A stretch of DNA of 41,642 nt from a virus (lineage: Duplodnaviria > Heunggongvirae > Uroviricota > Caudoviricetes). This document shows, piece after piece, positions 5,724-41,266 of the stretch; position 1 is the first letter of the stretch; every line of letters starts with the position of its first letter. The notes beneath the pieces are model-generated. The model had not been told where the DNA came from. It ran no database searches and saw nothing but the letters and a program-made list of their open reading frames with translations. The position numbers were made by a program, and so were the translations under genes. The DNA lies in IMG/VR virus record IMGVR_UViG_2541047897_000010; one strand, 5' to 3'.

Positions 5724-6398
5724 TTAGGCCTTTATTTTGTATCTTCTTGGTTTTCCTGAGAAAATTACTGTACCAATTATAGAGCAATTACCGTTGATCT
5801 TAATGTAAGGTTCAGGCCAGTTTGGGTTTAATGCTTTGAGGTAACGCTGTGTTCCATCTTCTATCAACCGCTTAAAGGTGGTTTCGCCTGTATCGTGCAT
5901 CAATGCAATAACGTCGTCACCGTGGCAGGCAGGGACTTCAGGATCTACAAAAATCATGTCTCCCGGGCGGTACTCATCAATCATTGAATCACCAATCACC
6001 CGCAAGATATAAGTCATTTCGCCACAGGGTACAGGGCAGGGATAAGTTTCTGCTGTGCTCAAATCAACCTCAGAATAGCCAACTTCTTTCCATGCTCCGG
6101 CCTGTACCCATGATATGACAGGGACTAACGTTATTTGTTTGTTAGTAATTGAAACATCAGGTTTTTTTGTGATGTTTGTTGTCTGGTGTTCTTGATCAAG
6201 CCATCCGACAGGCAGGTCGAAACATTTTTCGATGTGCCGTGCCATGCTGTCACCGATATTTTTAGTAGCACCATCTCCCATAAACCTGCTGGTCTGGGTT
6301 GGCTCGCGATCAATCATGGTGGCAAAGGAAGAATTCCCGCCAACACCATCTCTCAGTTTTCTGGCGTTAGACCGCCGGATGTCATGGACTGTTTTCAT
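5724..6398 (-). CDS. cI: CI-type prophage repressor (HTH plus S24 LexA-like autopeptidase domain)
   Basis: 224 aa; C-terminal S24-like region (VIGDSM...GD.I.VD); divergent to cro-like gene. Confidence 0.75.
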   Translation of the reverse strand: MKTVHDIRRSNARKLRDGVGGNSSFATMIDREPTQTSRFMGDGATKNIGDSMARHIEKCFDLPVGWLDQEHQTTNITKKPDVSITNKQITLVPVISWVQAGAWKEVGYSEVDLSTAETYPCPVPCGEMTYILRVIGDSMIDEYRPGDMIFVDPEVPACHGDDVIALMHDTGETTFKRLIEDGTQRYLKALNPNWPEPYIKINGNCSIIGTVIFSGKPRRYKIKA

Positions 6399-7284: not shown

Positions 7285-8117
7285 ACAGTTTAACGGCAAA
7301 TAACCGTTTGTCGCAACAGCTGGTGGTCAGCGTCGCTGAACACCTGTTGTTACGGCATGAATGCAGATTACCAAATCACCTGGCTGTAAGTAACCACAGA
7401 GAACTTTACCTGACTGTGGGGGGCGAGTTGTGCAGGAACTTAACCGCTGGTTTCGTGACGGAAGAGGGCTTTATGTCCATGTTATTCGTTGGGAGCCAGA
7501 AACACAGCGCGTTATCTATCTTCGCAAAGACTACCCGCATGAGTGCTTTAGTCCTTTGTGGAAATTCAGGCGTGATTTTGTTGAGTGTGAAGGACCACCA
7601 GCACATTGATTCTGCCATTCCGGGACGTTACACTGTTCAGGCACCTTATAAAGCGGGTGACGGGATTGGCGTCCTGGAAATGTTATCGGCGATATATGAC
7701 GCGCCAGCGTCTTTTTTATCGTCTGTGTCTGTGCACACCCAAATTATGGTGGGCTGGACGGGGGCACCGAAAGGTGCGCCGGTTTCCGATAACGCCGGTT
7801 ACGCCAACCCCGTTCAGTTCACCACCAGCGAAATTGGCGTTTCCGGTGGTGAAGGTAATTCACTGTTATCGGAGGCTGCCATCATGGCTACTGTCCCAGC
7901 CCTCACTCGTCTGAATGATGAAGACTTACATAAACTCAGTTATGTAACAACTGCACTACGTGCTCTGCGCAAGGTAACTCTTTCGGATCCGCAGGCGCAT
8001 CAGGTTTTGGTAGAAACCCTTCTTAACTTGCAGGCTGAACGTATTCGTCTGGCGGATAAGGCTAATTTTCATATTCACCGTCTCCTGAATATCAGCGGAG
8101 GGCATCGTCATGCTTAA
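7281..8117 (+). CDS. Hypothetical early protein, no family recognised
   Basis: 278-aa ORF with ATGA stop/start overlap with upstream gene. Confidence 0.4.
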   Translation: MNSLTANNRLSQQLVVSVAEHLLLRHECRLPNHLAVSNHRELYLTVGGELCRNLTAGFVTEEGFMSMLFVGSQKHSALSIFAKTTRMSALVLCGNSGVILLSVKDHQHIDSAIPGRYTVQAPYKAGDGIGVLEMLSAIYDAPASFLSSVSVHTQIMVGWTGAPKGAPVSDNAGYANPVQFTTSEIGVSGGEGNSLLSEAAIMATVPALTRLNDEDLHKLSYVTTALRALRKVTLSDPQAHQVLVETLLNLQAERIRLADKANFHIHRLLNISGGHRHA

Positions 8118-34366: not shown

Positions 34367-35491
34367 ATGCATCGTATAGACACGAAAACCGCGCAGAAGG
34401 ATAAGTTCGGCGCGGGTAAGAACGGTTTTACCCGTGGTAACCCCCAGACTGGCACGCCTGCCACCGATCTGGATGATGACTACTTTGACATGTTGCAGGA
34501 AGAACTTTGTAGCGTTGTTGAGGCATCCGGTGCCAGTCTGGAGAAGGCGCGGCACGACCAGCTGCTTACCGCGCTTCGTGCGCTGCTGTTAAGCCGCAAG
34601 AATCCGTTTGGCGATATCAAATCGGATGGCACTGTGCAAACGGCTCTCGAAAACCTTGGTTTGGGAACACTGCAATCATCCTTCACAGATAAAACGGGTA
34701 AAATTGCATTAAATGGCGGGTGGGGGCTTGGGATAAAGGCAGACCAGGTAAGCGGAACTATGGCGGCGTTGGACGTCAGTCGCTTTGATTATTTTGCCCC
34801 TGCAGATAATATCGGTCCTTATCCTGGGCAGTGGGCTGGTGGTATTTCATTTGCTAACTCAGGTTCAACCGGGTGGCAAATCTGCGGTGCGTCTCTCGGT
34901 TCCATTCCTGACTTTAGTGTGAGGATAAAAACGAATCAGACTGCATTTTCTGACTGGTATAAGTTGTACCACACAGGATTTAAACCCACTCCCGCTGATA
35001 TAAACGCTATCCAACGTGATGCGTGTGATGTGGCTGGGTTTATTTCCAACAATCAACAAGACCCATACATGAGGCATTCGGCATCGAATAACATCATACA
35101 GCTTGCCACTCGTCAGTTTGTTTCTCAATCTATTTCCAGCCTCAGTCTGGGTACAGCAGCAACAAAAAATGTGGGTACAGGTGCTGGACAAATACCGGAT
35201 ATGTCTAGTTTTACGAGTGGTACCGGCTGGGCATCTTTACCGGGTGGGACTATTATCCAGTGGGGTATTGCAGCCTCTGGTCAAATTGGCGATCCGCAGA
35301 CAATCAATTTCCCCGTACCTTTTACAAATTACAGTACAGTTCAGCTTGTTGCTTCATATGATAACGCTGGCGCTTCAGGTGCACCTTATAGCTTTGCAGC
35401 TCAACCTATCAGTAATACCCAGTTCAAATTATTAAATTCAACATCATCATCAGCCGTTATTTACGCTCGGTGGATTGCGATCGGGAGATAA
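34367..35491 (+). CDS. Tail fibre protein (constant N-terminus joined to currently expressed variable C-terminus)
   Basis: Conserved N-terminus [22 protein letters not shown]...; crossover site inside gene; C-terminal part AT-richer. Confidence 0.75.
34645..34670. repeat. Left inversion crossover site (gix/hix-like)
   Basis: TCTCGAAAACCTTGGTTTGGGAACAC; inverted copy at 37024-37049. Confidence 0.55.
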
Positions 35492-35496
35492 TTAGA

Positions 35497-35940
35497 ATGA
35501 ATAAATATTTTTATGATGTATCTACAAATGCTTTCTATCCGATAGCTATGAAGGAAATTTATGAATCAAATGGAATTAATTTTGACAATGCTAAGGAGGT
35601 TGATGAAAAACTATTTATTGAGTATTCAGGCGAACCACCGAAAGGGAAAATCCGCATTGCTGGTGAAGATGGTTTTCCTGCCTGGGGTGATATTCCGCCG
35701 CCAACGCACGATAAACTTGTTGCAGCAACTGAAGCACAAAAACAACTGCTAATCGACCAGGCTAACGAGTACATGAACAGCAAGCAATGGCCGGGAAAAG
35801 CTGCAATGGGACGGCTGAAAGATGCCGAAAAGGTACAGTATAACGCGTGGCTGGATTACCTGGACGCACTGGAGCTGGTTGATCCCTCCAGTGCTCCAGA
35901 TATTGAATGGCCTACGCCTCCGGCAGTTCAGGCCAGATGA
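35497..35940 (+). CDS. Tail fibre assembly protein (Tfa), expressed orientation
   Basis: ATG 35497; C-terminal conserved Tfa-like region (...YNAWLDYLDALELVD...). Confidence 0.65.
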   Translation: MNKYFYDVSTNAFYPIAMKEIYESNGINFDNAKEVDEKLFIEYSGEPPKGKIRIAGEDGFPAWGDIPPPTHDKLVAATEAQKQLLIDQANEYMNSKQWPGKAAMGRLKDAEKVQYNAWLDYLDALELVDPSSAPDIEWPTPPAVQAR

Positions 35941-36505
35941 CATTCGGCGCGGTGCTGGTATCTGTTGCCGTCACCGCGTCAATGTAATCCAGCACAGCGT
36001 TAAGCCGGGTTGTTTCTGCCTGCATCAGCTTCCGTCCGGCCTGTGATTTCAGTTGAATCAGACTGATGGAAGCCATTGCAGCATCAATCAGCGACTGGCG
36101 CTGTGCTTCTGCCGCTTCTACTGCGGCGCTATGCTGTGCCTCGGTATCCGTCACCCATTTCTCACCATCCCATTTATCGTATGGCGTTAACGGTGAAAGC
36201 GTGACATAACCGTCTTTGATGGCACCGATATAATCCACTGTAACAGCTGCGCCATTTTCAGTTGAGTAAACGGTCTCATTGCGATGGTCTTCTTCATGGC
36301 TCCATCCCTTACCCGTAAATACTGCCACTTTTCCCGGAATGTTTTCGCCCGGGTCAATACCAGTGGAACAGGCGGGTATACTTACGCCAGTATTAATATA
36401 TTCATCAGACCAGCCGGTATATTCATACGTTACTGCATTATAATAAAAACAACGCATATCGCCCGGCACTGTAGCCAGCCCATTTTCATCAAAAACAGGT
36501 TTCAT
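35912..36505 (-). CDS. Alternative tail fibre assembly protein (Tfa prime), silent orientation
   Basis: 197 aa on opposite strand; C-terminal region (...LNAVLDYIDAVTATD...) parallels Tfa. Confidence 0.6.
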   Translation of the reverse strand: MKPVFDENGLATVPGDMRCFYYNAVTYEYTGWSDEYINTGVSIPACSTGIDPGENIPGKVAVFTGKGWSHEEDHRNETVYSTENGAAVTVDYIGAIKDGYVTLSPLTPYDKWDGEKWVTDTEAQHSAAVEAAEAQRQSLIDAAMASISLIQLKSQAGRKLMQAETTRLNAVLDYIDAVTATDTSTAPNVIWPELPEA

Positions 36506-37077
36506 TATTTAGCCCTCACCAGAAAGTTAAATGCAATATTTCGTGGACGGGTTTCTGTACCTACATGTCCACTAATTTCACCATAACGTTTAACACTACG
36601 AGAGCTAAGAGCTCGTAGTGAGGAAGGCACCTTAAGACCGGGTTCGTCCGTTTTAACTATTCCCCCGTCACCATATGTAGCCAGTATTCCTGGGTTTACT
36701 CCTTCCCGTGCACTTCCTGCAGCAAGCCCGTCCCCCGTCCACAATTCCATATTGTGTGCATGATCCATAATTGTGTGTGATTGCCCTGAAAGTAGGGTAC
36801 GTCCGACATCAATCCCGCGCCCATCATCCCAGATACGAATGAAATCACCCCGTGCGTCAGGTAATGCTAGCGCCGGAAACACTTTCGCCAGCACAGGGTA
36901 ATCAGTGGCAGAGAATTTCGCGCCGTTGAACTTCAAAAACACCATACTGGACCAACTGTCGATTACAGTATTTGGCATTGCGGCGGACGGCCAGAAGAAC
37001 GGAACGCCAATAGCTGGAGCACCTTCTCCCAAACCAACGTTTAAGAAAATGCAGAGATTATGGCTAACTGGCATCAT
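36505..37077 (-). CDS. Alternative tail-fibre C-terminal coding segment (promoterless; fused to constant N-terminus after inversion)
   Basis: Reverse ORF whose N-terminal codons (..NVGLGEG..) are encoded by the right crossover site, mirroring ENLGLGT at the left site. Confidence 0.5.
   Translation of the reverse strand: MMPVSHNLCIFLNVGLGEGAPAIGVPFFWPSAAMPNTVIDSWSSMVFLKFNGAKFSATDYPVLAKVFPALALPDARGDFIRIWDDGRGIDVGRTLLSGQSHTIMDHAHNMELWTGDGLAAGSAREGVNPGILATYGDGGIVKTDEPGLKVPSSLRALSSRSVKRYGEISGHVGTETRPRNIAFNFLVRAK
37024..37049. repeat. Right inversion crossover site (gix/hix-like)
   Basis: TTCTCCCAAACCAACGTTTAAGAAAA, reverse complement of left site with identical core CCCAAACCAA-G-TTT. Confidence 0.55.
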
Positions 37078-37104
37078 CCCCGGTTTTTACTCAGGGGAAT
37101 GCTC

Positions 37105-37662
37105 ATGCTTATTGGCTATGTCCGCGTATCAACAAATGACCAGAATACGGAATTGCAGCGTAATGCGCTGGAGTGTGCAGGATGTGAGCTGATTTTTGAA
37201 GATAAGATCAGCGGCACTAAGTCCGACCGACCGGGACTGAAAAAACTGCTCAGAACATTATCAGCAGGTGACACTCTGGTAGTCTGGAAACTGGACCGAC
37301 TGGGGCGCAGTATGCGGCATCTTGTCGTGCTGGTGGAGGAGTTGCGCGAACGTGGCGTTAATTTTCGCAGCCTGACGGATGCTATTGATACCAGCACACC
37401 AATGGGGCGCTTTTTCTTTCATGTGATGGGTGCCCTGGCTGAAATGGAGCGAGAGCTTATTGTCGAACGTACTAGGGCGGGCTTTGCCGCAGCACGACAA
37501 GAAGGGAGGAATGGTGGGCGAAAGCCAAAGCTGACAGTAGAACAATGGGAGCAGGCTGGCAGGTTGATTGAATCGGGAATATATCAGCAGCAAGTCGCAC
37601 TGATTTATGATCTGGGTATTTCAACGGTGTATAAAAAATTCCCTGTAGCAAGTAAACCATAA
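37105..37662 (+). CDS. pin: Serine DNA invertase (Gin/Pin/Hin family)
   Basis: N-terminus MLIGYVRVSTNDQNT...; near-collinear with recalled Gin/Pin sequences; C-terminal HTH. Confidence 0.85.
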   Translation: MLIGYVRVSTNDQNTELQRNALECAGCELIFEDKISGTKSDRPGLKKLLRTLSAGDTLVVWKLDRLGRSMRHLVVLVEELRERGVNFRSLTDAIDTSTPMGRFFFHVMGALAEMERELIVERTRAGFAAARQEGRNGGRKPKLTVEQWEQAGRLIESGIYQQQVALIYDLGISTVYKKFPVASKP

Positions 37663-37688: not shown

Positions 37689-38384
37689 TTATGCACTATT
37701 TTTAGGTCTTGTAACCCGAGGTGGGAGTTGTTTGGTTATATGTTCAAGTGATTTTTTGCCCAAGATAGTTCTTTGGACAAAACTTTCTATAGCTTCTAGC
37801 ATTTGTTCGAACTCACTTTTATTCGGGCTCCAACTGCGATGTGCGGCGGCGTTTCCTGCATCAATTACAGAAGATATAACGCATGCCTCAGTGTCGCCTA
37901 TGACTCCATCTTGTTTTAATTTTTCAACTTTTTCACCAAGCGGCAAACCGGGGTGAATTTGTAACAGTTCAGCAGTTCGATCAAAAATCGTCCGTAAACC
38001 GATGGACGAAAGGATGAAATGGTCAGAAGTATATGAAGAATACATTTCATTAAATATTTGAAAGAGCTGACGATCAACTGATTCAAGCTTGGATAACCAT
38101 ATCGGAGCTTGAAATGTTTCAGCGGCAGGATAGGTAGTGATCATATCTATAGGCGTTTCTACAAATTCACCATCACGATATTCGTGGGTAGTATGCTCAC
38201 TGAAGTGTTCGTTGTGGTGATAGAAGACAGTATCACAGCCATTGCATTGGAGTAGGTGATGGTAATGGTACCCATAAACTGGATATTGGGAATCCTCCCA
38301 GCTAGTGGTTAGCTTCCCATGCACAGTGCAGTTACGTAACCCACCGCATGTAGGGCAAAGAGCCTTGAGTATTTCCTTTTTCAT
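37689..38384 (-). CDS. Zinc-ribbon + DUF4145-like protein; candidate phage-defence/exclusion gene
   Basis: 231 aa in AT-rich island between invertase and dinI/int; N-terminal CPTC...CNGC; C-terminal helical domain with IDAGNAAAH motif recalled for DUF4145. Confidence 0.5.
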   Translation of the reverse strand: MKKEILKALCPTCGGLRNCTVHGKLTTSWEDSQYPVYGYHYHHLLQCNGCDTVFYHHNEHFSEHTTHEYRDGEFVETPIDMITTYPAAETFQAPIWLSKLESVDRQLFQIFNEMYSSYTSDHFILSSIGLRTIFDRTAELLQIHPGLPLGEKVEKLKQDGVIGDTEACVISSVIDAGNAAAHRSWSPNKSEFEQMLEAIESFVQRTILGKKSLEHITKQLPPRVTRPKNSA

Positions 38385-38732
38385 AAAGTCTCTGATTCTA
38401 TATGTAGGTTAAGACCACTATTAGCTATACGGACCTAATAATCAATCGTGTGCAGATACAAAAAAGCCCGTATAGCGGGATTTCATGTCACTAAGGGCCG
38501 CGGCTACTTTGCGTATCTTTTTTGTCTTCTCACCGTCTGGCCGGTATTTTGCTGAGACTGCTTATTTCCAGTTTTTACTAGTGCTGTACTGGTACTGCCC
38601 AATCATGATTGGTGGGGGACGGAGTTGAAACCGCAGCCACGTCGTATGCAAGAACGCGCTGCGGTTGGCTGGTGAACTTTCGATAGTGCGAGTATTGAAT
38701 GATTTCCAGCCGTTACAGATTTTACGTGTTTA

Positions 38733-38981
38733 TTAGTGAACAAACCACTCGTCAGCAGATTCCCAGGTATCTTTCAGAGTCTCCTGAACAAAAGTTTTTG
38801 CAGAATCCTTATCTGCGGTGCGTGTAACAGAAAGGCCATCATTGCTGGTGGCTTTTACTAACACCTCAACATCGTCATAACGCTTACTGATGCGTCGGGT
38901 TAATTCTTCCTTTAACGCATCCACAGCACCGGTTGGCATTTTAGTCATTTTTTCTTTGGCTATGCAGATTTCAATACGCAT
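38733..38981 (-). CDS. dinI: DinI-like SOS-regulated protein
   Basis: 82 aa; MRIEI...[12 protein letters not shown] closely parallels DinI; tandem LexA boxes immediately upstream. Confidence 0.75.
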
Positions 38982-38994
38982 AAAAGTCCCTCCA

Positions 38995-39014
38995 TACTGT
39001 GTTTGTATACAGTA
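38995..39014. promoter_or_regulatory. LexA (SOS) box 1
   Basis: TACTGTGTTTGTATACAGTA, perfect CTGT-N8-ACAG. Confidence 0.65.
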
Positions 39015-39022
39015 TTATTTTT

Positions 39023-39042
39023 AACTGTATGGATAAACAGTG
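39023..39042. promoter_or_regulatory. LexA (SOS) box 2
   Basis: AACTGTATGGATAAACAGTG, CTGT-N8-ACAG; 9 bp from box 1. Confidence 0.6.
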
Positions 39043-40140
39043 TCAAGAGGTCTTATTTCTGCTCCTTTGGAGCTCTTCAAAACGATTATGTAAAGATTTC
39101 GGATACAGTTCGGTATATACCTGCCATAGCACGTTTAATGAACGATGCCCTGTAACCTGGGCGACTTCCTCAATACTAAAACCAGCCTCAAATAAGCGAC
39201 TTGCCCCTTCTCTACGCAAATCATGGTATCGCAGATCCTTAATACCTAATTTGCTTCTTACTCTCTGAAATCCCGCAGTAACAGAAGTGCTGTTATATGG
39301 AAAAATGAATTCCGATTTTTGGGGCTGTCGTTGGACGATATCCCAGGCTTCCCCAAGCAAGGCTACTTTCATGTGGTTGCCTTCCTTTTTGCGTGGATCT
39401 TTCCTGTCTCTTACGAGTATAGATTTTTGTTCCTGGTCGAGATCTTCCCATCGTAACCGGCATACTTCTCCGATTCGCATACAGGACCATACAGAAAATT
39501 TGAGGATATCAACGAACGGAATTTTTGAGCATTTATGAGTAGATCGTTGTTGAAGGCCTGCAATGAGCATGTCCAGTTCATCAGATGCTGGTCTACGATT
39601 ACGACGGTTTGATTTACCAATCAAACCAAGTTTAAGTAGATATGGGCGAGCGCTTTTCGCCGGGTTTGATGTGTAATTAATTCCGTATACAGGTTTGGCC
39701 GCATCCAGAACACTGCCAAGATAACTAACATCGTGGCTGACTGTTGCAGGACCTGCACCAGCGTTGTTTCTTAGCCTGCAATGTTCAATTACGTCATTTT
39801 CTGTCAGTTCAGATAGTTTGATCGCGGAGATGTCACTATCCATAAGCAGTTCCAGCACATATCTTTTAGTACGGCCTGCTTTACCTCCGGCATTTGGGTC
39901 ATTTAAATATTTGTGTAGTAAGTCACGGACTGTAAGTCCGTCAACTGCATTTGATGATGGAATGCCATATAGATCTAATTCCATCACTTTCTGTGTGCCC
40001 CATGTTTTGGCATGAGCATGTTTAGGGAATGTTTTGCTTTCCCTGTAAGTGATAACACCTTTTTCTTTGATAATCACATTACAGCGATAGCGTGGTGTGC
40101 CATCGGATTTTAGTCGTTTCTCTATGTTATAGTACGCCAT
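39043..40140 (-). CDS. int: Tyrosine integrase, dusA-associated type
   Basis: 365 aa with catalytic R...HDLRR...GHRSL...Y residues; divergent from and adjacent to dusA. Confidence 0.85.
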   Translation of the reverse strand: MAYYNIEKRLKSDGTPRYRCNVIIKEKGVITYRESKTFPKHAHAKTWGTQKVMELDLYGIPSSNAVDGLTVRDLLHKYLNDPNAGGKAGRTKRYVLELLMDSDISAIKLSELTENDVIEHCRLRNNAGAGPATVSHDVSYLGSVLDAAKPVYGINYTSNPAKSARPYLLKLGLIGKSNRRNRRPASDELDMLIAGLQQRSTHKCSKIPFVDILKFSVWSCMRIGEVCRLRWEDLDQEQKSILVRDRKDPRKKEGNHMKVALLGEAWDIVQRQPQKSEFIFPYNSTSVTAGFQRVRSKLGIKDLRYHDLRREGASRLFEAGFSIEEVAQVTGHRSLNVLWQVYTELYPKSLHNRFEELQRSRNKTS

Positions 40141-40160
40141 TACACGACCTCGTTATTTCG

Positions 40161-40195
40161 GGTTCCCATAAAACGTGGGAACCTGTGCGGGAACC
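40161..40195. promoter_or_regulatory. Inverted plus direct repeats in int-dusA intergenic region (candidate integrase/regulator binding sites)
   Basis: GGTTCCCA-7nt-TGGGAACC then GGGAACC. Confidence 0.3.
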
Positions 40196-40228
40196 TAACG
40201 CGAGAAAAATAGCCTGAAATGTTCAAAA

Positions 40229-41266
40229 ATGCACGATAATCATGAAACAAAAAAAATTAATCAAACCAGCGTGATGCCTGAAAAAACTGGTGTTTACTGG
40301 AATTCTCGGTTTAGCATTGCTCCTATGCTCGACTGGACGGACAGACATTGCCGTTATTTCCTGCGTCTGCTTTCCCGCAATACGTTGCTGTATACCGAAA
40401 TGGTGACCACAGGGGCGATTATTCACGGTAAAGGTGATTACCTGGCGTACAGTGAAGAAGAACATCCGGTAGCGTTGCAACTCGGGGGTAGCGATCCGGC
40501 GGCGCTGGCACAGTGTGCGAAGCTGGCAGAAGCGCGTGGATACGATGAGATCAACCTGAATGTCGGCTGCCCGTCTGACCGGGTGCAGAACGGCATGTTT
40601 GGTGCGTGTCTGATGGGTAATGCGCAGCTGGTTGCCGACTGCGTGAAAGCGATGCGCGATGTGGTGTCGATTCCGGTGACGGTGAAGACGCGTATTGGCA
40701 TCGATGATCAGGACAGCTATGAATTTCTCTGCGATTTCATCAACACCGTTTCCGGCAAAGGTGAGTGTGAGATGTTCATCATCCACGCACGTAAAGCCTG
40801 GCTTTCTGGGTTAAGTCCGAAAGAAAACCGTGAGATCCCGCCGCTCGATTATCCGCGTGTGTATCAACTGAAGCGTGACTTTCCGCATCTGACGATGTCG
40901 ATTAACGGTGGTATCAAGTCGCTGGAAGAAGCTAAAGCGCATTTGCAACATATGGATGGCGTGATGGTCGGGCGCGAGGCGTATCAGAATCCGGGTATTC
41001 TGGCGGCGGTAGACCGAGAGATTTTTGGTTCCTCGGATATTGATGCCGATCCGGTGGCGGTAGTGCGCGCCATGTATCCGTACATTGAGCGTGAACTCAG
41101 CCAGGGTACGTATCTCGGCCATATTACCCGGCATATGCTGGGCTTGTTCCAGGGTATTCCTGGCGCGCGGCAGTGGCGGCGTTATTTAAGTGAAAATGCC
41201 CATAAAGCGGGTGCAGACATTAATGTGCTGGAACACGCGCTCAAACTGGTGGCGGATAAGCGTTAA
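40229..41266 (+). CDS. dusA: tRNA-dihydrouridine synthase A
   Basis: 345-aa ORF with Dus TIM-barrel motifs ([21 protein letters not shown]); alternative start at 40274 (MPEKT) possible; 5' end may be phage-supplied. Confidence 0.85.

Follow-up and report, generated by a model that had tools for sequence, protein, structure and literature searches.

Tandem predicted LexA operators on the promoter of a dinI cassette in an Escherichia coli prophage

[quoted passage not shown] The LexA box adjacent to Gifsy dinI controls the dinI-antirepressor-irsA operon, its replacement abolishes induction by mitomycin C, and Gifsy DinI accumulates after DNA damage (PMC3121763). By RNA-seq in Salmonella, transcripts of all three Gifsy dinI genes rose 5- to 23-fold after DNA damage (PMC8072944). 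In coliphage 186, tum is transcribed from the LexA-repressed p95 promoter and its product has a DinI-like half (PMC3121763). The dinI-DinR locus of Klebsiella pneumoniae also has a LexA-controlled dinI, with a box over the start site, LexA bound at the promoter by ChIP and a 3' end that has an extra function (PMC10907235). As for the protein, E. coli DinI holds the L2 loop and the basic patch of RecA by means of residues L13, L21, W71, W77, F78, E24, E69 and D76, and the RecA groove that it binds is also used by LexA, UmuD and lambda CI (PMC9926225). The same cassette as the one described here is present in public records of mEp460 (gp21; NC_019716), SKA5, VT1-Sakai (H0001; AP000400) and many Stx1 and Stx2 phages. 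The VT1-Sakai record carries the annotations "putative promoter" and "LexA protein, putative SOS box" at the position of what we call below the proximal box. Our survey of the literature found no experimental study of this E. coli lambdoid-phage dinI cassette itself.

Here, we have analyzed a 41,642-nt stretch of DNA (IMG/VR record IMGVR_UViG_2541047897_000010; hereafter, the window), which proved to be a segment of the E. coli chromosome with dusA at 40229-41266 and a complete-looking prophage. The regulation genes of the prophage are lambdoid (CI-like repressor, CII-like activator, Q-like antiterminator and excisionase) and its tail is contractile (sheath, tape measure, baseplate and tail fibres, plus a tail-fibre invertase). 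The prophage is inserted at the 5' end of dusA, and its integrase gene points away from dusA (40141-41266). Such an arrangement is known from dusA-targeting integrases, where a substitute 5' end for dusA comes from the phage, and a separate study has reportedly dealt with dusA integration by one integrase family. That dusA is a target of one integrase family has been documented (PMC6328086). It was also observed that a Hin/Gin/Pin-type serine invertase gene (37060-37662, plus strand) adjoins opposed tail-fibre C-terminal and assembly cassettes (35912-37077, minus strand), and 35470-37662 looks like an invertible host-range segment. The genes around the locus of interest are as follows:

39043-40140, minus strand: tyrosine integrase of the dusA-associated type (365 aa), the upstream neighbour, transcribed towards dinI
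38733-38981, minus strand: dinI-like gene (82 aa), identified by PF06183 and a DinI structure match
37689-38384, minus strand: DUF4145 gene (231 aa), the downstream neighbour, probably separate cargo outside the shared cassette

Between the end of the integrase ORF (39043) and the start of the dinI-like ORF (38981), both on the minus strand, lies an intergenic gap of 61 bp (38982-39042). The original prediction, made before this analysis, placed two CTGT-N8-ACAG sites in this gap, and both were indeed located there with perfect cores, CTGTGTTTGTATACAG at 38997-39012 and CTGTATGGATAAACAG at 39025-39040. The two corresponding 20-mers together span exactly 38995-39042, as originally delimited. 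The proposed spacing of 9 bp needed correction, as the actual distance is 12 bp between the 16-bp cores and 8 bp between the 20-mers; measured from centre to centre, the boxes are 28 bp apart. Together with the predicted promoter, the elements of this region are, in the direction of the gene:

39041-39046, minus strand: predicted -35 hexamer of the dinI promoter, TTGACA, a consensus match with TTGA-A invariant in relatives
39023-39042, minus strand: predicted distal LexA box, CACTGTTTATCCATACAGTT (read in gene direction, 39042-39023)
39018-39023, minus strand: predicted -10 hexamer, TAAAAA, after a 17-nt spacer, a consensus match only (4 of 6 positions)
38995-39014, minus strand: predicted proximal LexA box, TACTGTATACAAACACAGTA (read in gene direction, 39014-38995)
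38988-38993, minus strand: Shine-Dalgarno sequence GGAGGG, 6 nt before the ATG, read from the sequence

Each of the two boxes overlaps the predicted promoter or its start site, which is the placement expected of an SOS box. The distal box shares its first two bases with the end of the -35 hexamer and fills the promoter spacer, and the proximal box begins 4 nt past the -10 hexamer and spans the predicted transcription start, expected near 39009-39013. The -35 hexamer in turn contains the stop codon of the integrase gene (TGA, 39045-39043). With regard to the -10 element, the promoter scan favored AAAAAT at 39022-39017 with an 18-nt spacer, which together with TTGACA matches the consensus at 10 of 12 positions; this TTGACA-18-AAAAAT combination was the one strong promoter-like site that the consensus scan found here. 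The record of mEp460 (NC_019716) has a promoter annotated at the same place with a 17-nt spacer. A plus-strand promoter using the same boxes was also considered and rejected, as none was found by scan or by eye. No terminator separates the integrase gene from dinI; at the predicted occupancy, integrase transcripts would enter LexA-occupied operators, where LexA might conceivably act as a roadblock.

To compare the boxes with other sites in the window, we used an approximate heterology-index matrix based on a set of 28 SOS boxes of E. coli, and all values given here are approximate as well; they ran about 1.5-3 units under most published values, and 2 of the 13 values checked deviated the opposite way. 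Both 20-mers resemble the E. coli-type SOS box TACTGTATATATATACAGTA and have a perfect 16-bp palindromic core. The approximate index was 3.3 for the proximal box, the best in the window, and 5.2 for the distal box, and the next-best site in the 41.6 kb (10.9) was found in a coding region. LexA-binding sites have indices below about 12.6 on the published scale. Both boxes fall below this limit, bearing in mind that the matrix is approximate and runs low. The E. coli chromosomal dinI gene has a single SOS box, ACCTGTATAAATAACCAGTA, which is weaker than the proximal box of the window. Over the whole window, three CTGT-N8-ACAG matches were observed against 0.57 expected from shuffled sequences. 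The third match (7384-7399) lies within an ORF and has a poor heterology-index score, and was dismissed as a chance occurrence. As judged by their scores, the two boxes of the gap are the sole strong LexA-like sites within the window, and the index scan found no further LexA site elsewhere in its 41.6 kb.

The protein encoded behind these boxes matched the Pfam DinI family (PF06183) over the entire profile (positions 1-63 of 63; E-value 1.1e-19; 71 bits against a cut-off of 24.2) and E. coli DinI (1GHH/7YWA) over its full length (residues 1-81; E-value 3.8e-13). The counterparts of the RecA-contact residues in the window protein are M15, L23, W73, W79, F80, E26, D71 and E78, five of which are identical (L23, W73, W79, F80 and E26) and three conservative (M15, D71 and E78). 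Compared with the chromosomal DinI of E. coli K-12 (1GHH, 7YWA), the phage protein has the same fold, a similar length, the same RecA-contact positions and a C-terminal acidic helix; on the other hand, the two proteins are only about 49% identical and the phage protein has a two-residue insertion after K9. Identity to Gifsy DinI is only about 43%. On the strength of these matches, the window ORF can be regarded as a true DinI. The chromosomal dinI of K-12 is LexA-regulated, as is predicted for the gene in the window.

The occurrence of the tandem boxes was then followed in relatives of increasing distance. In near-identical IMG/VR loci with enough upstream sequence, both perfect cores were present in all 61, and the substitutions were in the flanks; this first scan covered relatives of at least 99% identity only, and diversity came from a tblastn search of phages and a profile scan of species representatives. 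In the tblastn sample, diverged phage dinI genes mostly had one box at the start site, as in Gifsy-2, SPN3UB, SEN34, Klebsiella phages, PHB10 and an Aeromonas phage, and a group of coliphages with dinI at the genome end had two. In addition, we examined 80 DinI-family loci from different Enterobacterales, drawn from a genome collection in which each species is represented once. Within 120 nt upstream of the gene, 61 of them had one LexA box, 12 had two and 7 had none, so that 73 had at least one. Tandem boxes were confined to the loci closest to the window DinI (Escherichia, Shigella, Erwinia, Pantoea and Mixta), where the distal box was always fused to TTGACA and the proximal box lay about 33 nt before the ATG. 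When 12 diverged promoters from E. coli, Shigella, Erwinia and Mixta were aligned, CTG and CAG/CA proved invariant in the boxes; the complete set of invariant columns was TTGA-A, distal CTG...CA, -10 AAA and proximal CTG...CAGT, and the rest drifts. The centre-to-centre spacing of the boxes varied from 24 to 28 bp among relatives, and therefore cooperative binding of LexA on one face of the DNA, which depends on phase, seems unlikely, and two independent blocks are favored. Overall, the alignments show the tandem layout to be conserved throughout the 82-aa DinI subfamily, from E. coli as far as Erwinia and Mixta. It should be noted that enterobacterial-type DinI loci also appeared in assemblies labelled Chryseobacterium, Saccharibacteria, Wohlfahrtiimonas and Vagococcus (L101, L102, L103 and L144), which are probably contamination or mis-binned contigs.

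The distribution of the boxes also bears on the simplest objection, namely that both palindromes are chance matches or relics that have no regulatory role, in favor of which it may be said that LexA binding at the window locus is a prediction. The probability of this appears close to negligible. By arithmetic from the shuffle rate, a single given gap of 61 bp should contain only about 3.5e-7 such pairs, and the pair found here is placed exactly on the promoter. Moreover, the contact bases are invariant across genera whereas the flanks drift, and the same arrangement is found upstream of 73 of the 80 DinI-family genes.

Promoter, operators, dinI and a terminal hairpin make up a single cassette (38627-39046, minus strand) with sharp boundaries. 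One of them is found only a few bases ahead of the -35 hexamer, and the other directly behind the hairpin, about 105 nt beyond the stop codon. At least 80% of its length was found in 1,409 of 5,426 complete E. coli genomes, in up to eight places per genome, and 149 phage records match part of the query. The region from the integrase gene to dinI has 98% nucleotide identity to SKA5 and mEp460, and many Stx1 and Stx2 phages share 38627-39046 alone, at 91-94% identity. With a promoter of its own, a hairpin at its end (hairpin B below, whose U-tract is degenerate in this copy) and sharp boundaries at about 38627 and 39046 across the 149 phage records and 1,409 genomes, the cassette is a self-contained phage moron. 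The distal box is unannotated in the records of mEp460 and VT1-Sakai; it is perfect in the window, whereas it reads CTGG...ACAG in VT1-Sakai and is degenerate in BP-4795. In PhiR12_5 (L083, 230-548), the promoter-operator region is 92% identical to that of the window, the dinI coding sequence is 76% identical and the tail is unrelated. Such mosaic identities suggest that the operator region and the dinI gene can recombine separately.

The original prediction had also pointed out that the gene lies close to the integration module. The same integrase precedes the cassette in 46 of 50 of the closest relatives. In contrast with the window, where the cassette directly follows the dusA-type integrase gene, the cassettes of Stx phages lie beside the att site, nleC or a YkgJ-like gene and have no adjacent integrase. 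Thus, no functional link to the integrase is supported, and the adjacency reflects the att-proximal genome position of the cassette rather than a demonstrated function.

Downstream of dinI, a gap of 348 nt precedes the DUF4145 gene and contains the following elements:

38667-38711, minus strand: hairpin A of the dinI 3' tail, whose loop hardly varies between relatives
38629-38666, minus strand: hairpin B, a probable intrinsic terminator (dG -19.6 kcal/mol), with the cassette boundary just beyond (about 38627)
38460-38484, minus strand: second terminator-like site, CCCG-loop-CGGG followed by U6 (dG -11.1 kcal/mol), outside the cassette

In eight relatives, four compensatory changes preserve the pairing of hairpin B, and a T-run comes after the hairpin. 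The U-tract has at least five residues in relatives and only UUUC in this copy. The original prediction had suggested that the dinI promoter might read through into the DUF4145 gene. This would amount to an SOS-controlled dinI-DUF4145 operon, in which the LexA-controlled transcript crosses the 348-nt gap and both genes are damage-inducible. The two genes are on the same strand, the scan gave no strong promoter before the DUF4145 gene, and the shortened U-tract means that termination at hairpin B may leak. However, both terminator-like hairpins (38629-38666 and 38460-38484) intervene, a weak candidate promoter (TTGATT-17-AATAGT) follows the second of them, and the cassette ends at about 38627. 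Beyond this boundary, none of the related phage records contains the DUF4145 segment, and the layout seen here occurs in only 29 of the 5,426 E. coli genomes. Given the hairpins and the cassette boundary between the two genes, read-through into the DUF4145 gene is unsupported, and we consider a common operon unlikely. The DUF4145 protein has an N-terminal CxxC...CxxC motif, and its gene lies between the invertase gene and the dinI cassette. A PADLOC scan of this protein, DinI and two ORFs of the left end gave no matches.

The 3' tail of dinI, about 105 nt with two hairpins (38629-38732, minus strand), was observed to be conserved beyond the silent sites of dinI. The tail was also seen on its own, with no dinI, at cryptic prophage ends, among them that of Qin (NC_000913.3, about 1632446-1632575; L177, 2947-3076) and a lambda att-region remnant. 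One might consider that this tail is a 3'-UTR-derived small RNA released from the LexA-controlled transcript, for which the Klebsiella DinR, processed from the dinI mRNA, provides a precedent (PMC10907235). The tail is 76% identical in the relative L101 as compared with 41% at third positions of the coding sequence, the loop of hairpin A is nearly invariant, and the survival of the tail alone at cryptic prophage ends, including Qin of K-12, would agree with such a role. On the other hand, recent descent or a role in termination could explain its conservation, this copy has only a short U-tail, no Rfam family reached threshold on this strand, and at the Qin remnant the MG1655 record shows no small RNA. 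DinR pairs through a region specific to Klebsiella, and the window tail has no special complementarity to ftsZ. A DinR-like action on ftsZ was rejected, since the duplex predicted with the start region of E. coli ftsZ (-28.6 kcal/mol) is no better than that of shuffled tails (-31.6 +/- 4.6 kcal/mol). Taken together, a small RNA from the tail appears quite improbable. The Rfam search of the region gave nothing at threshold, the best match noted being CssrB at 21 bits against a cut-off of 76. This sub-threshold match to a Shigella small RNA (38540-38663, plus strand) involves only its 3' hairpin, which is the complement of hairpin B, and thus hairpin B may terminate transcripts from both directions in some relatives.

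A further question is how the prophage itself is induced. In its repressor (5724-6398), the C-terminal domain is S24/UmuD-like and contains AG, GDSM and K motifs, and the C-terminal half matches repressor, UmuD-like and CI-like PHROG families. On the basis of this domain and these motifs, induction probably occurs through RecA-stimulated self-cleavage of the repressor, and DinI would act on the same RecA filament. An alternative modelled on Gifsy and phage 186 is that a small antirepressor made together with DinI triggers induction. [quoted passage not shown] However, the two loci differ from the window in several respects. In Gifsy, a single box is found in the nin region after a terminator, the downstream antirepressor drives induction and the repressors are uncleaved, whereas in the window tandem boxes stand beside the integrase gene and att site, dinI is alone and the repressor has an S24 domain. 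Similarly, Tum is an antirepressor fused to a DinI-like part, whereas the window DinI stands alone with a repressor of the self-cleaving type. Neither an adjacent or fused antirepressor nor a repressor lacking a self-cleavage domain was found here. No conserved ORF follows dinI, as the tail consists of 105 nt of hairpins in which the only frames are TTG-started ones of 46 and 32 aa that have no support. The self-cleavage domain of the repressor would make an antirepressor unneeded, and there is no other LexA site in the window. An antirepressor module of this type was therefore rejected as very improbable, in view of the absence of an ORF after dinI, the S24 repressor and the lack of a further LexA site.

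We therefore favor, with a probability of about 85%, the explanation that the cassette is a LexA-repressed moron in which two operators on the dinI promoter make DinI inducible by DNA damage. The original prediction of SOS control over a prophage DinI homologue thus holds up, insofar as sequence, conservation and experiments on homologues agree. Directly observed were the sites and where they lie on the predicted promoter, how well they are conserved and which protein is encoded. LexA binding and DNA-damage induction of the window dinI are what we would infer from its homologues. In an undamaged lysogen, host LexA dimers would sit on both operators, the distal one overlapping the -35 hexamer and filling the spacer and the proximal one covering the start site. 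Either LexA site would exclude RNA polymerase, and DinI would not be made. Because both sites are near consensus and both would block the promoter, dinI should be kept tightly off, in the manner of an SOS gene under strong repression. Once the DNA is damaged, RecA filaments would form and stimulate LexA self-cleavage, both sites would clear and the 82-aa DinI would be made. Bound in the RecA groove, DinI would then alter filament stability and co-protease output while the CI-type repressor of the prophage is being cleaved.

What the phage gains from dinI can only be inferred. Since the groove bound by DinI is common to LexA, UmuD and lambda CI, it is plausible that the phage DinI tunes filament stability and the cleavage of the repressor and UmuD during induction. 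In Gifsy, however, non-polar deletions of dinI had no measurable effect on prophage induction (PMC3121763), and the benefit of a phage DinI is thus unproven. A more specific but rather unlikely possibility is that the double LexA lock confines DinI to deep SOS and so tunes the induction threshold, or alternatively that the tail is an SOS-induced regulatory RNA. If DinI were confined to deep SOS, it would appear as CI-type repressors are being cleaved and could slow or sharpen the cleavage of its own repressor or that of a co-resident prophage.

With respect to LexA repression of the moron as such, the cassette and its SOS box are already known from public records, in which the SOS box was annotated in 2000. 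What the present analysis adds is small: a second box, fused to the -35 hexamer, is shown by the alignments to be conserved in this DinI subfamily. As existing records annotate only one box or none, this detail of the tandem operator is modestly useful. More generally, a very common E. coli prophage cassette would appear, from its sequence and its homologues, to be wired to the host SOS response. It is present in about a quarter of complete E. coli genomes, often in several copies and including Shiga-toxin phages. Because DinI shares the RecA groove with CI-type repressors, dinI cassettes could influence the induction of Stx prophages.
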